This document shows, one piece after another, positions 24,170 to 46,724 of a DNA stretch of 59,823 bases; position 1 is the stretch's first letter; every line of letters begins with the position of its first letter. The position numbers were made by a program, and so were the translations under genes. Under the pieces are notes generated by a model, which saw only the letters and a list, made by a program, of their open reading frames with translations, had not been told where the DNA came from and made no database searches. Source of the DNA: Minisyncoccota bacterium (GTDB taxonomy: Bacteria; Patescibacteriota; Minisyncoccia; Phycocordibacterales; PALSA-1337); NCBI GenBank assembly GCA_041665325.1, contig JBAYJB010000001.1, positions 1 to 59,823 on the forward strand, written 5' to 3'.

Positions 24170-25297
24170 ATGAAAAAATCAATCATTTGGGTTGTGGGCA
24201 TCGTAATCGTGGTCATACTGATTATTGTTGCTTCTAACAAGAAGCCTACCGAGACCGGGCCGATCAGGATTGGATTCATCGGAGCACTTTCAGGTAATAC
24301 TGCCATATACGGTGAATCTGTCAGGAATGGTGTACAGATTGCGGTCGAAGAAATAAATAATGACAACGGAATTAATGGTAGACAGATCCAACTGATACAG
24401 GAGGATGTCGCTTGTTCAGATGGCAAGGTTGCCGCTTCTGCCGCACAGAAGCTTATATCCATAGATAAGGTGAACATCATCATTGGTTTTCCTTGCAGCG
24501 GGGAAGTCCTAGCTGTGGCACCAATCTCCGAGGCAACAAAAACGATAATATTTGCGCAGGGTTCCAGTCCAGCCATAACTGATGCAGGACAATATATCTT
24601 CCGTACCTGGCCAAGCGATGTCTTTGCGGGTAAGACGATGGCATCAAGAGTTTTTGCTGATGGGTTCAGGAAGGCGGCTGTAATAACCGAGAACACTGAA
24701 TACGCGACCTCTATTCGAGATGTCTTTGCCAAGGAGTACTCTACTATAGGTGGCGTTGTCTCTGCCTCGGAAACATTCAAGTCAGATGTAAAAGATTTTC
24801 GATCTATTATAGCCAAGGTGAAGCAGTCAAACCTGGACACCCTCCTCATCAATGCTCAAGCAGGAGGCAATGCTGCAGCGATAGCGAAGCAGGCTAGAGA
24901 ACTAGGGATTAAAACACAATTCTACGGGTACTTCTTTACGGGACCAGATTTCGTGAAGACCGGTCCAGCCGTAGAGGGGACACTTCTGTTGGATGTGCCA
25001 ACCCTAAATCCAAACAATCCCACCTCGGCCGCATTCCTTGCCAAATATGAAGCGAAATATAATCAAAAACCTAGTTATCCATTCTACTCCGGTGGTGGTT
25101 ATGACCAGATGATGCTGTTGGCGCAATCGATCAAAGAAGTTGGGATGGATACCGATAAGATAAGGGAGAGGCTAGAACAAGTCTCAGACTATGATGGTGT
25201 GATAGGTAAGTTCAGCTTTGACAAACAAGGTGATGTGGTTGGTGTCGACCTTAGTTGGGGCAAGATTATAAATGGTGAGTTTGAACCAATAAAATAA
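24170..25297 (+). CDS. ABC transporter substrate-binding protein, LivK/Peripla_BP_6 type, membrane-anchored (SBP1)
   Basis: MKKSIIWVVGIVIVVILIIVA anchor without a lipobox Cys, then GPIRIGFIGALSGNTAIYGESVRNGVQIAVEEIN. Confidence 0.85.
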   Translation: MKKSIIWVVGIVIVVILIIVASNKKPTETGPIRIGFIGALSGNTAIYGESVRNGVQIAVEEINNDNGINGRQIQLIQEDVACSDGKVAASAAQKLISIDKVNIIIGFPCSGEVLAVAPISEATKTIIFAQGSSPAITDAGQYIFRTWPSDVFAGKTMASRVFADGFRKAAVITENTEYATSIRDVFAKEYSTIGGVVSASETFKSDVKDFRSIIAKVKQSNLDTLLINAQAGGNAAAIAKQARELGIKTQFYGYFFTGPDFVKTGPAVEGTLLLDVPTLNPNNPTSAAFLAKYEAKYNQKPSYPFYSGGGYDQMMLLAQSIKEVGMDTDKIRERLEQVSDYDGVIGKFSFDKQGDVVGVDLSWGKIINGEFEPIK

Positions 25298-26418
25298 TGA
25301 AGAAATCAATTTGGTGGATCGTGGGAATAGTCGTCGTTATTCTAATAATCGTAGCAGTTTCGAACAAGAGGCCATCAGAGACCGGTCCGATCAAGATTGG
25401 ATTCATCGGGCCACTGTCTGGCGATGCCGCAGGAGTTGGAGAGCCGGTCGCCAATGGGGTTAGACTTGCGGAAAAGGAGATAAATGATGCTGGTGGTATC
25501 AAGGGTAGGAAGATCCAGGTGTTCTATGGAGACGGCAAGTGCGACGGGCCGACAGCAGTCTCTGTCGCTCAAAAGATGATTAGTATGGATGGGGTGCATT
25601 TCATCATTGGCGGGATTTGCAGCGGAGAAGTGCTGGCGGCGGCGCCAATCTTGGAGGCCGCAAAAGTCCTATCCATCTCTCCCGGCGCGACGAGCCCCAA
25701 TGTATCCAATGCCGGAGATTATGTCTTCAGAAATGCTCCCAATGATGCCGATCGCGGCGTTTCGTTGGCTGATTATGCAGCCGAACATTTTACGAGGATA
25801 GCGGCTATCTCTGAACAGACTGACTACTCACAGTCTTTGAAGAAGAGCTTTGTTGACCAACTGAACGTCAAAGGGATCCAGTTAGTCGCCGATGAGACTT
25901 ACAATTCTGAATCAACAGATTTCCGTTCAATACTCCTCAAGCTCAAGACAGCCAAGCCAGATGTGATCTTCCTCAACCCCCAATCTCCAGCCAATCTCAT
26001 CAGGCTTGCCCAACAGGCTCGCACTACAGGTATCACTGCGCAGTTTATCGCTTCTGAATTCATAGATGCCCAGGTGATGGCCGCCGGCGCGGCTGTGCAG
26101 GGTATGATCGTCAGTGTTGCCCCCGGCTTGTCTGCTGAAGGCAGGGGAGGGGAGCTCCTCACTGCTTACAAGGCGATGTTCGGTAAAGACGCCGATTATC
26201 CTTATTATGTCGGTGCGGCTTACGACAACCTCCACATCTTTGCGGATGGCATAGCCAAATATGGTGAGGATACGACTCTGATCAAGGATTATCTGTATGC
26301 TCTGGAGGATTACCCCGGAACGATAGGGACCTATTCCTTCGATGATGATGGTAATGTCGTGGGAGTCGGCTTCGTCTTCCAGAAGATCGTCGATGGCAAG
26401 GCAGTGCCAATCGAGTAG
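25297..26418 (+). CDS. LivK-type substrate-binding protein (SBP2)
   Basis: Anchor MKKSIWWIVGIVVVILIIV, then GPIKIGFIGPLSGDAAGVGEPVANGVRLAEKEIN. Its start overlaps the SBP1 stop (TAATGA). Confidence 0.85.
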   Translation: MKKSIWWIVGIVVVILIIVAVSNKRPSETGPIKIGFIGPLSGDAAGVGEPVANGVRLAEKEINDAGGIKGRKIQVFYGDGKCDGPTAVSVAQKMISMDGVHFIIGGICSGEVLAAAPILEAAKVLSISPGATSPNVSNAGDYVFRNAPNDADRGVSLADYAAEHFTRIAAISEQTDYSQSLKKSFVDQLNVKGIQLVADETYNSESTDFRSILLKLKTAKPDVIFLNPQSPANLIRLAQQARTTGITAQFIASEFIDAQVMAAGAAVQGMIVSVAPGLSAEGRGGELLTAYKAMFGKDADYPYYVGAAYDNLHIFADGIAKYGEDTTLIKDYLYALEDYPGTIGTYSFDDDGNVVGVGFVFQKIVDGKAVPIE

Positions 26419-26442
26419 ATGTCTATCAAGTAATCAACCGTC

Positions 26443-44920: not shown

Positions 44921-45997
44921 ATGTCCAAAAACAGCAAAATCATCTGGGGTGCAGTCGCGATCATAGTCATCGTCCTCGTCGTGTGGAATGTTCAGAATAA
45001 GTCGACCGGTCCGAAGGAAGTCATCAAGATTGGCGTGGTTGTGCCACTGACCGGCGGAGCCTCCGGCTATGGCGAGCCGCTGGTGAAGGGTTTGGAACTG
45101 GCCATGCAGGACTTGGGCGATACGAAATACGATTACAAGCTGGTTATCGAAGACGACGGCACCAATCCGGCTACTTCAGCCAGCGCCGCCCAGAAGCTGG
45201 TTAATATCGACAAGGTCCGGGCTATCATCACCACTACTTCAGGCACAGGCAACGCGGTCAAGCCGATCGCCACGGCCGCTGGTGTGCCGCACACTTGTAT
45301 CTGTGTCGACAGTACTCTGACGAAAGACAACAGAACTAACTTCATTTATCTTGCGCTTCCGGAGATAGAATCGCGTGCCTGGGTAGACGAAGCGGCTACA
45401 GTCGGTATGAAGAAGGTTGCGCTCATAGCTCAGAATCATCCGGGGTTCAACTTGATCGTCAATGTCATCAAACCGATATTCGCGGAAAAGAGTATTTCTG
45501 TGGTATTCGAAGAGCGTTACGATCCTTCCACGAAGGACTTCAAGACTGTGCTTGCAAAGGCCCGTGCATCTAACCCGGACGGTTATTTCATCGGAGGATT
45601 CCCTCCATCTCTAGAAGCGTTGGGTAGAGAGATCAGGACGCTCGATCTCGAGGGTGTAGCTGGATTCGGCACGTTTGCACTGGCTGCAGACCTGTCCATC
45701 TTTGAGGGTAATTGGTTCACGGATGTCAGACTCGCCGACTCAGCGTTCCAGACGCGCTTCGAGCAAGCTTTCCCCAAGATCAGATTTAACGCCCGCACGG
45801 CTCCGGAAGCCTATGACGTATTCAATATCCTTGTTGACGCCTTCGAGAGCGGCCAGAATGTTTCGGAGTACATGCGCGCTATGACTAGCTATGCCGGCAA
45901 ATCCGGCAATGTAACCAAGGAAGCTGATTCCGGCAATTTCAGTGTGCCTGTAGGTATCTGGACCATCAAGGACGGCAAGGCTGTGCAGGTAAAATAA
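44921..45997 (+). CDS. LivK-type substrate-binding protein (SBP13)
   Basis: Anchor MSKNSKIIWGAVAIIVIVLVVW, then VIKIGVVVPLTGGASGYGEPLVKGLELA. Confidence 0.85.
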   Translation: MSKNSKIIWGAVAIIVIVLVVWNVQNKSTGPKEVIKIGVVVPLTGGASGYGEPLVKGLELAMQDLGDTKYDYKLVIEDDGTNPATSASAAQKLVNIDKVRAIITTTSGTGNAVKPIATAAGVPHTCICVDSTLTKDNRTNFIYLALPEIESRAWVDEAATVGMKKVALIAQNHPGFNLIVNVIKPIFAEKSISVVFEERYDPSTKDFKTVLAKARASNPDGYFIGGFPPSLEALGREIRTLDLEGVAGFGTFALAADLSIFEGNWFTDVRLADSAFQTRFEQAFPKIRFNARTAPEAYDVFNILVDAFESGQNVSEYMRAMTSYAGKSGNVTKEADSGNFSVPVGIWTIKDGKAVQVK

Positions 45998-46004
45998 AAA
46001 CCTC

Positions 46005-46724
46005 ATGTCCACCCCCACCGAAACCCTCCTATCTCTCTCTAACATCCACGTCCACTACGGTGGGGTCAAGGCCCTGGACGGCGTATCAGTCGGCATCGAC
46101 GAAGGGGAAGTGGTGGCTCTCATGGGGCCGAACGGCGCAGGGAAGTCCACGATCCTGAAAGCCATATTCGGTCTAGCACCGATCGAGTCGGGGACGGTCG
46201 CTTGGGAAGGTCAAACATTCACGCCGGTCTCGCACGAGACGGTGCGGCGAGGCATCTCATTTGTGCCGCAGGGCCGCCGCGTCTTCCGCCACCTGACCGT
46301 CGAGGAGAACATCGAGATCGGTGGTTGGGGCGTACCATCCAGCGAGAGGAAGGAGCGCATGGCCAATGTCCTCGAACTATTCCCGGCCTTGAAGACCAAG
46401 CTCAAGGCCAAGTCCGGCACGCTCTCCGGCGGCCAACAGCAGATGCTAGCCATCGCCCGTGGCCTGATGACCGACCCCAAGGTCCTCCTGCTCGATGAGC
46501 CATCGCTCGGCCTGGCGCCCAAGATCGTCAAGGAAGTCTTCGCCAAGGTCAAGGAGATCAACGCCCGCCGCAAGACGGCCATCATGGTCGTCGAACACAA
46601 CTTGAAGTCGCTCCTCGAGATCACCACGCGCGCCTATGTCCTAGACAAAGGCAAGGTCTACGCCGAAGGCAAGCCGCAGGATATCATCGACCGGGGGATA
46701 CTACAGAAAGTCTTCTTGAGCTAG
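46005..46724 (+). CDS. livF: Branched-chain amino acid ABC transporter ATP-binding protein (LivF type)
   Basis: Walker A GPNGAGKST, signature LSGGQQQMLAIARGL, Walker B LLLDEPS. Confidence 0.9.
   Translation: MSTPTETLLSLSNIHVHYGGVKALDGVSVGIDEGEVVALMGPNGAGKSTILKAIFGLAPIESGTVAWEGQTFTPVSHETVRRGISFVPQGRRVFRHLTVEENIEIGGWGVPSSERKERMANVLELFPALKTKLKAKSGTLSGGQQQMLAIARGLMTDPKVLLLDEPSLGLAPKIVKEVFAKVKEINARRKTAIMVVEHNLKSLLEITTRAYVLDKGKVYAEGKPQDIIDRGILQKVFLS

Follow-up and report, generated by a model that had tools for sequence, protein, structure and literature searches.

Thirteen binding-protein genes and one translocator set

The DNA analyzed here, the first 59,823 nucleotides of contig JBAYJB010000001.1 from a Minisyncoccota bacterium (GenBank assembly GCA_041665325.1; hereafter, the window), carries at positions 24170-46724 thirteen genes for substrate-binding proteins (SBPs), interleaved with the genes of one ATP-binding cassette (ABC) transporter of the LivH/LivM/LivG/LivF type. 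Our view of the genome comprised the window plus the adjoining 10 kb on its upstream side, some 70 kb out of a 155-kb contig. A sequence-only reading of the window had proposed thirteen LivK-type binding proteins and a single dispersed livH/livM/livG/livF set, and both proposals were confirmed: all thirteen SBP reading frames are intact in the map of open reading frames (ORFs) and the translations, every product matches PF13458 above the gathering score (Pfam, E 7e-22 to 6e-62), and Pfam together with a scan using hidden Markov models (HMMs) found one of each core gene in the window. When HMMs built from the locus proteins were run against every ORF of the window, neither a 14th SBP nor a second H, M, G, or F protein was detected. 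The proposed gene order was reproduced as well by ORF map, translations, and Pfam. The estimate that about 37% of the window is devoted to receptors holds for the share of the locus (37.7%), whereas the SBP genes alone amount to 14,226 bp, or 23.8%.

The two permeases, LivH/UrtB-like (29254-30120) and LivM/UrtC-like (34550-35446), belong to BPD_transp_2 (PF02653, E 2.4e-44 and 3.9e-49, respectively). The ATPases are LivG/UrtD-like (39937-40686; PF00005 and PF12399, with a BCA_ABC_TP_C tail) and LivF/UrtE-like (46005-46724; PF00005). With two permeases, two ATPases, and type I (cluster B) SBPs, the locus has the components of a HAAT-family ABC importer (TC 3.A.1.4). The best NCBIfam matches were UrtB/LivH and LivM/UrtC for the permeases and UrtD/LivG and UrtE/LivF for the ATPases, all of them below the equivalog cutoffs (LivH 111.5 against 379, LivM 181 against 366, LivG 176.7 against 362, and LivF 198.3 against 441). 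Since these cutoffs were missed and the UrtB-E models scored equal to or above the Liv models on the core proteins, "Liv-type" denotes the HAAT family here and not a specificity for branched-chain amino acids.

All SBP and core genes lie on the plus strand, with four SBP genes between livH and livM, two between livM and livG, and four between livG and livF, plus four minus-strand genes among them in the ORF map. Judged by spacing and strand, SBP1 (24170-25297, 375 amino acids [aa]), SBP2 (25297-26418, 373 aa), SBP3 (26443-27552, 369 aa), and an EamA/DMT-like permease gene (27656-28576, plus strand; 10 transmembrane segments, weak Pfam matches) would form a first unit, with a promoter-like plus-strand site, TTGCCA-18-TATATT (24135-24164; 10 of 12 matches), ahead of SBP1 and a terminator at 28586-28607 downstream. 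The EamA/DMT-like gene occupies the same position in three related loci (L003, L008, and L024 in our numbering). A second unit would consist of livH, SBP4 (30160-31254, 364 aa), SBP5 (31260-32348, 362 aa), SBP6 (32363-33463, 366 aa), SBP7 (33472-34578, 368 aa), and livM, with gaps of 5 to 39 nt and a 29-nt overlap. SBP8 (36129-37268, 379 aa from an MNKK start) and SBP9 (38216-39337, 373 aa) would each be transcribed alone, the latter downstream of a putative operator, and so would livG, which is flanked by two minus-strand genes and shares its last 16 nt with the 3' end of the convergent regulator 2 gene. The last unit would comprise SBP10 (41677-42756, 359 aa from an MKQSK start), SBP11 (42784-43839, 351 aa), SBP12 (43846-44844, 332 aa), SBP13 (44921-45997, 358 aa), and livF as its final gene. 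Spacing within blocks ranges from the 29-nt overlap of SBP7 and livM to a 76-nt gap between SBP12 and SBP13. With livG standing alone and the other core genes spread over the locus, the four core genes would be distributed over no fewer than three transcription units, an uncommon situation for the parts of a stoichiometric complex.

Divergence of the receptors and distribution of the layout

In an all-versus-all comparison the SBP paralogs were only 22 to 32% identical pairwise, the sole exception being SBP1 and SBP2 with 43%, which bears out the divergence claimed by the sequence-only reading and shows that they are not near-identical copies of the kind an assembly artifact would leave. Long DNA repeats or insertion sequence-like boundaries around the cassettes were not found in the locus, and this, together with the divergence of the paralogs, rules out that the assembly was collapsed or duplicated. 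The exact LivM protein is encoded on a 154.8-kb contig of a short-read metagenome assembly (ENA ERZ27249449; contig k141_377210), a type of source in which a collapsed or chimeric repeat or a binning error might be suspected. We regard the chance of such an artifact as negligible, given that the paralogs are too divergent to be misassembled (their 5' ends share no more than 67% of nucleotides) and that the same layout recurs in dozens of independent assemblies, complete chromosomes included.

The SBP N termini open with M-(N/K/S/Q)-K-rich residues, after which comes an extended hydrophobic stretch that is mostly free of charges. The unbroken hydrophobic run measures 14 to 21 residues in 12 of the 13 proteins and 9 residues in SBP9, where one Ser interrupts it. 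A lipobox had been reported missing, and indeed none of the thirteen proteins has a Cys within residues 1 to 45. With these features, the SBPs may be tethered by an uncleaved N-terminal helix. Classical lipoboxes (LVAC, LCAC, or IAGC) are present in SBPs encoded by loci L049 to L052, which include rumen loci labeled alphaproteobacterial and sharing the layout; the Cys-free helices thus mark a genuine difference in anchoring. Gene conversion or cassette recombination via conserved 5' ends was considered and rejected, as the first 66 nt of the genes are at most 67% identical (mean, 51%) and differ at many synonymous positions. The low nucleotide identity thus indicates that the similar-looking anchors result from selection on the peptide rather than from gene conversion.

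For a comparison of binding pockets, 221 SBPs of the clade were aligned with Escherichia coli LivJ, an alignment in which the assignment of columns is approximate at 20 to 30% identity. We take the residues contacting the amino-acid backbone and side chain in LivJ to be Y18, C78, S79, A100-T102, Y150, Y202, and E226. Only SBP2 keeps most of them (C78, S79, A101, T102, Y150, and E226). SBP1 (Y18, C78, S79, and Y150) and SBP3 keep some, and the remaining ten differ at most positions; SBP4, for instance, has W78, S79, T102, and W150. Identical pockets, which the sequence-only reading had named as speaking against a broad spectrum, were thus not found, the positions varying widely among the paralogs, and the non-identity of the aligned pockets appears robust despite the approximate columns.

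SBP12 is the most deviant paralog, and its Pfam match is limited to the N-terminal lobe. Its structure model (predicted local distance difference test [pLDDT] score, 86) shows a helix at residues 3 to 25 and a complete two-lobe type I fold. The best structural neighbors were Thermotoga LivK (3td9; template modeling [TM] score, 0.80), pneumococcal LivJ, and several aromatic-acid binders from Rhodopseudomonas, followed by binders of phenylpyruvate, pyroglutamate, gamma-aminobutyrate (GABA), and urea. Overall, the PDB neighbors of the SBPs are LivJ/LivK homologs, and the ligands of the closest solved relatives comprise amino acids, aromatic acids, 2-oxo acids, pyroglutamate, GABA, and urea, a range indicating that this fold family accepts many ligand classes. 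Since the pockets are divergent and the paralog subfamilies are old and conserved (see below), broad-spectrum scavenging is the favored interpretation of the repertoire.

Related loci were collected with a LivM scan over one genome per GTDB species, a pattern-limited search of which the best 80 matches were used; the 10 kb on either side of each livM gene were retrieved and annotated with the locus HMMs. About 65 loci or species were found with LivM proteins 51 to 86% identical, nearly all labeled Patescibacteria, Parcubacteria, "Candidatus Taylorbacteria", Kaiserbacteria, or, generically, Saccharibacteria, which places the organism studied here in the Candidate Phyla Radiation (CPR), among bacteria of the Paceibacteria type. 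H, M, G, and F are 65 to 93% identical in these relatives (LivH, 70 to 93%; LivM, 65 to 86% in about 65 species). SBP genes occupy four slots in the clade, namely before H, H-M, M-G, and G-F; the H-M slot was filled in 13 of 59 loci, M-G in 24 of 49, and G-F in 15 of 39, and in 14 of 59, H was preceded by at least two SBP genes. Related loci have 0 to 11 SBP genes in the 10 kb on either side of livM, and the thirteen of the window are the largest number seen. L020, a closed 716-kb chromosome, has 11 SBP genes around one translocator set. More distant members, e.g., L054, L056, L057, L061, and L062, show the canonical S-H-M-G-F order. The non-canonical, interleaved layout described by the sequence-only reading is therefore real, but it is not peculiar to this genome, being a trait of a clade of about 65 species.

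Single-linkage clustering at 40% identity divided 239 SBPs of the clade into 63 clusters. The largest has 95 members from 54 loci, mostly encoded directly upstream of livH, and includes SBP1, SBP2, SBP3 (orthologs at most 63% identical), and SBP13; this core cluster looks like the ancestral receptor. The other SBPs of the window belong to small, patchily distributed subfamilies, that of SBP8 being the rarest. Members of one cluster were found in different slots: SBP5, located in the H-M slot here, has a 75% identical ortholog in L008 that follows livM in the M-G slot. For 11 of the 13 SBPs, other species have orthologs that reach 40% identity or more across a span exceeding 250 residues (best identities, 41 to 75%; SBP8, 40%). 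Since ortholog identity lies far above paralog identity, the subfamilies predate the species and have been kept by selection. These data bear on the alternative that the array consists of largely redundant or decaying duplicates that have not diversified in function. Arrays of tandem paralogs may come about by neutral processes, and SBP12, with its shortened chain and one-lobe Pfam match, might be taken for a decaying copy. However, the thirteen frames are intact, SBP12 has orthologs 51 to 59% identical in five species as well as a confidently predicted complete fold, and SBP1/SBP2 is the sole pair resembling a comparatively recent duplicate. In view of this and of the high ortholog identities, we consider mere redundancy very improbable.

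Loci L049, L051, and L052 derive from rumen or gut metagenome-assembled genomes (MAGs) labeled Alphaproteobacteria or proteobacterium. Their LivM proteins are 55 to 57% identical to the protein studied here, compared to about 35% for LivM of other Proteobacteria, and their genes are interleaved in the same manner, in the order H S S M G S S S S S S F. Two explanations suggest themselves, namely horizontal transfer of the complete arrangement between CPR and gut Alphaproteobacteria or bins that carry a wrong label.

Regulator and small-RNA modules

Two of the minus-strand genes encode putative regulators, and their assignment to the TrmB family by the sequence-only reading was upheld; what that reading had overlooked is a conserved pairing of regulator, candidate operator, and SBP gene. 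Regulator 1 (37336-38142), divergent from SBP9, has 268 aa, the size of TrmBL2, and comprises a winged helix-turn-helix, a coiled coil, and a PLD-like C-terminal domain. The PF01978 winged helix is matched by 26 of 27 members of the regulator family (best E, 3.2e-18); regulator 1 itself scores 21.5 bits, below the cutoff of 25.6. Regulator 2 (40671-41492), divergent from SBP10, lacks a direct Pfam match and was assigned only via hhalign to the regulator 1 family, with which its own family is homologous over the full length (P 99.5%, E 3.9e-22). A model of regulator 1, built with database homologs (pLDDT 87.7; predicted TM score, 0.55), matched full-length archaeal TrmBL2 (Foldseek E 4e-13, about 270 columns), and its C-terminal domain also matched NucT, PLD, and FAM83. 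The global TM score to TrmBL2 is only about 0.4 because the two-domain model superposes poorly (root mean square deviation, about 9 Å). The effector (sugar)-binding C-terminal barrel found in TrmB proper is absent from the model.

In the related loci, all 22 minus-strand regulator homologs with a downstream neighbor are divergent from a plus-strand SBP gene less than 400 nt away. Close orthologs of regulator 1 (59 to 69% identical) adjoin orthologs of SBP9 (41 to 62%) in six of six cases, and those of regulator 2 adjoin SBP10 orthologs in two of two. The intergenic region of regulator 1 and SBP9 contains the 18-nt palindrome ATTCGCTTTTCGCCGAAT (ATTCG-N8-CGAAT; 38122-38139), beside the -35 box of, and directly upstream of, the SBP9 promoter TGGACA-16-TAAGAT (38142-38169). 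It is invariant across the five relatives with this region available, occurs once in the window, and was not found elsewhere in the other loci. Such full conservation beside proteins only about 60% identical marks ATTCGCTTTTCGCCGAAT as a functional site, probably the regulator 1 operator. The annotated regulator 1 start, M(S)MIRRKAN, is the translated palindrome in the window (38122-38142), L012, and L026, placing the start codon inside the gene's own presumed operator; the palindrome DNA is non-coding in L002, L004, and L005. Regulator 2-type regions of three relatives contain another palindrome, TGACYA-N5-TRGTCA, which was dropped as a regulator 2 operator in the window.

Three units of a promoter and a small RNA, likewise proposed from the sequence, were confirmed, and the top three sigma-70-like promoters in the locus are theirs (10 to 11 of 12 consensus matches). 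In each, the promoter faces a gene on the opposite strand, and the structured small RNA extends to the 3' end of that gene or overlaps it. None of the three RNAs had an Rfam match at the gathering threshold or at E<=1. Module 1 (28634-29121) combines the best promoter of the locus, TTGACA-18-TAGAAT, and a plus-strand RNA (about 28668-28775) with a 113/115-aa ORF on the minus strand (28774-29121). The RNA is predicted to form a three-way junction of about 70 nt followed by a terminator (-46.6 kcal/mol, z -6.05). The ORF had no match in Pfam, NCBIfam, or PADLOC, and its homolog in L001 (positions 3133-3570) is likewise faced by a convergent promoter with a structured RNA and a terminator. Module 1 probably represents a selfish or toxin-like insertion that does not belong to the transporter.

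Module 2 (35453-36000; plus-strand RNA, about 35486-35580) and module 3 (39346-39807; plus-strand RNA, about 39378-39432) each contain a minus-strand PemK/MazF-like gene (35581-36000 and 39367-39807, respectively). The small RNA is convergent with this gene in module 2 and antisense to its 3' end in module 3. Beyond the Pfam match, the PemK-like proteins yielded nothing in PADLOC or NCBIfam. A convergent, near-consensus sigma-70 promoter is present at all four PemK-like genes of the relatives (L015:10884-11270, L018:11377-11832, L031:7603-7884, and L038:17891-18358). The facing RNA has a 5' UUCG-loop hairpin (GGCYUUCGGSC) followed by a GC-rich hairpin; the 5' hairpin occurs in five of six cases, i.e., in L015, L031, L038, and both window copies, L018 having a different one. 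The window copies also share GGCCTTCGGGCTCCG. No protein antitoxin gene was evident beside the PemK/MazF-like genes of the window or the solitary copies of the relatives. Taken by their sequence features, the inserted modules look like toxin/antisense-RNA modules in gaps of the array rather than transporter parts, and a PemK-like protein with its facing RNA may constitute an undescribed toxin/antisense-RNA pairing.

Two divergent intergenic regions contain further repeats. Between the PemK-like gene and SBP8, GGTTCAAAT occurs as phased direct repeats of three copies exactly 22 nt apart (36022-36074), and another two copies with the same 22-nt spacing are located close to the start of the window (287-317). 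Between the 115-aa ORF and livH, GTTCAA(G/A) is present four times together with the palindrome AATATTCATGAATATT (29135-29190). These elements look like operator arrays for some DNA-binding protein. The locus is flanked by ordinary chromosomal genes (gyrB, a PBP2-type transpeptidase gene, greA, lysS, and mraW). A type IV pilus-like cluster with a T2SSE ATPase, T2SSF, and several N_methyl pilin-like ORFs occupies window positions 339-5824 and 20187-21444, adjoining two GH130 glycoside phosphorylase genes on the source contig, and may be relevant to an attached lifestyle.

The receptor array and its precedents

We consider it likely that the locus encodes one HAAT importer with thirteen tethered alternative receptors for different ligands, modular in arrangement and in part individually regulated. 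The sharing of one LivHMGF/UrtBCDE-type translocator, the difference in ligands, the uncleaved tethering, and the regulatory logic are what we infer from the data above. Each receptor would be a two-lobe type I SBP that an N-terminal hydrophobic helix, instead of a lipid anchor, fixes to the cytoplasmic membrane on its outer side. Each would have its own pocket and its own ligand and would dock on the common LivH/LivM pair, powered by LivG and LivF. One engine importing many compounds would be a cheap way to widen the diet of an organism with a genome well under 1.5 Mb and little biosynthesis. In the clade, the receptor genes behave as cassettes that are gained, lost, and shifted among the four slots around a conserved translocator. 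Some cassettes carry their own divergent TrmBL2-like regulator and putative operator, so that part of the repertoire is probably switched individually; the rest would be co-transcribed with core genes, as in livH-SBP4-7-livM and SBP10-13-livF.

Several observations weigh against this interpretation or parts of it. The small residues at positions -3 and -1 after the SBP helices form weak sites at which cleavage by signal peptidase is possible. The LivJ sequence used in the pocket comparison was validated only by its length (344 residues, as in PDB 1z15) and by the presence of the expected residues at the published contact positions. For regulator 2, the window has only a half-site of the palindrome seen in relatives, and the position of livF downstream of the block presumably controlled by this regulator does not sit well with simple repression. 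Ligand-responsive control is a conjecture, since no effector is known for TrmBL2 proper, a chromatin protein. Finally, about 70 kb of a contig of at least 155 kb was inspected, and two related MAGs show, among the best 80 matches, two LivM loci each with differing SBP layouts (L013/L063 of CAIPHR01 and L022/L030 of JAUPVY01), which represent either two translocator sets or strain-mixed bins. Both facts leave room for further HAAT permease sets elsewhere in the genome that would serve some of the SBPs and render the receptor-to-pump ratio ordinary. We consider this unlikely, however, in view of thirteen SBP genes interleaved, and apparently in part co-transcribed, with one H/M/G/F set. Moreover, no further permease set was found in the window or the 10 kb upstream, where further ABC or SBP genes do not occur, and most related genomes, including that of L020, appear once in the pattern-limited LivM scan.

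Many of the SBPs might instead be surface receptors that do not serve import and act in host recognition, adhesion, or sensing. CPR bacteria are often episymbionts, and the SBP fold is the receptor domain of GABA-B and ANF receptors. Tethering at the cell surface, the extreme turnover of subfamilies (63 clusters), and the loss of the LivJ amino-acid-binding residues in most paralogs could also be read in this way. On the other hand, the SBP genes are embedded in, and by their spacing translationally coupled to, transporter genes. Their products are single-domain proteins in which Pfam detected no signaling or adhesin domains, the full closed two-lobe fold appears to be retained in the model, and the related free-standing S-H-M-G-F operons point to an ancestral role in transport. 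Thus, a non-import function of many SBPs seems quite unlikely to us.

An importer with alternative receptors has well-established precedents, since several SBPs share one translocator in the case of LivJ/LivK, HisJ/ArgT, OppA1-5, and AmiA/AliA/AliB. In the E. coli LIV-I/LS system, more than one binding protein, LivJ and LivK, feeds LivHMGF, and the same families account for all five component types there and in the locus described here. The two differ in that E. coli has two receptors instead of thirteen, that here the core genes are split by SBP blocks and minus-strand genes, that the SBPs are predicted to be helix tethered rather than free in the periplasm, and that most paralogs lack the LivJ ligand residues. 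Borrelia burgdorferi combines OppA1-5 with a single OppBCDF, Streptococcus pneumoniae combines AmiA/AliA/AliB with AmiCDEF, and Rhizobium leguminosarum combines BraC/BraC3 with BraDEFG. These systems follow the same logic, in which paralogous SBPs, some of them separately regulated, broaden the substrates of one translocator in a bacterium that depends on a host or scavenges nutrients. However, they have two to five paralogs, encoded ahead of, or at a distance from, an undivided core operon rather than among its genes, their SBPs are lipoproteins or periplasmic proteins, and the Borrelia Opp and pneumococcal Ami systems belong to a different (peptide/Opp) transporter family.

Among the closest structural neighbors of SBP12, the aromatic-acid SBPs of Rhodopseudomonas palustris (HAAT type; RPA0668, RPA0985, and others; PDB 4evq, 4evs, and 4f06) illustrate that the fold binds far more than branched-chain amino acids, although their sequence identity is only 15 to 20% and they belong to a free-living organism whose large genome encodes many separate transporters. 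The putative regulators share their full architecture with TrmBL2 of Thermococcales (5bpd and 5bqt), at only 14 to 15% identity. TrmB of Thermococcales controls a trehalose/maltose ABC transporter operon, and the regulators described here likewise adjoin SBP genes; unlike TrmB, they are bacterial (CPR), lack the sugar-binding barrel, are paired with one SBP gene each, and face a short palindromic putative operator.

All components of the locus thus belong to known families. What appears to be new, provisionally, is the scale, with thirteen receptors at this locus and no fewer than 60 subfamilies clade-wide; the operon grammar, in which core genes are split by receptor cassettes in four recurrent slots; and the regulator-operator-SBP modules in a CPR lineage. 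In the literature, we found no account of this arrangement in CPR beyond generic mentions of liv genes; the library was incomplete, and the claim of novelty is accordingly provisional. It is tempting to go further and picture a fast-turning array of nutrient receptor cassettes, in which a constant translocator is served by dozens of SBP specificities, many of them for compounds outside the amino acids (for example, cofactors, nucleobases, organic acids, or host metabolites). Some regulator-operator-SBP units would be exchanged between lineages, possibly also with gut Alphaproteobacteria, and the set carried by a genome would define its dependence on a host or niche. This extension is speculative, and we are inclined to doubt it in its full breadth.

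Which compounds CPR/Patescibacteria take up from hosts or surroundings is largely obscure, as almost none of them have been cultured. Thirteen soluble, easily expressed ligand-binding domains from one organism, along with the subfamilies of the clade, would offer a route from inferred auxotrophy to a list of imported compounds. The extreme receptor multiplicity on one ABC translocator, expected to be moderately surprising to a transporter specialist, would further provide a natural system for studying how many SBPs one permease surface can accommodate.

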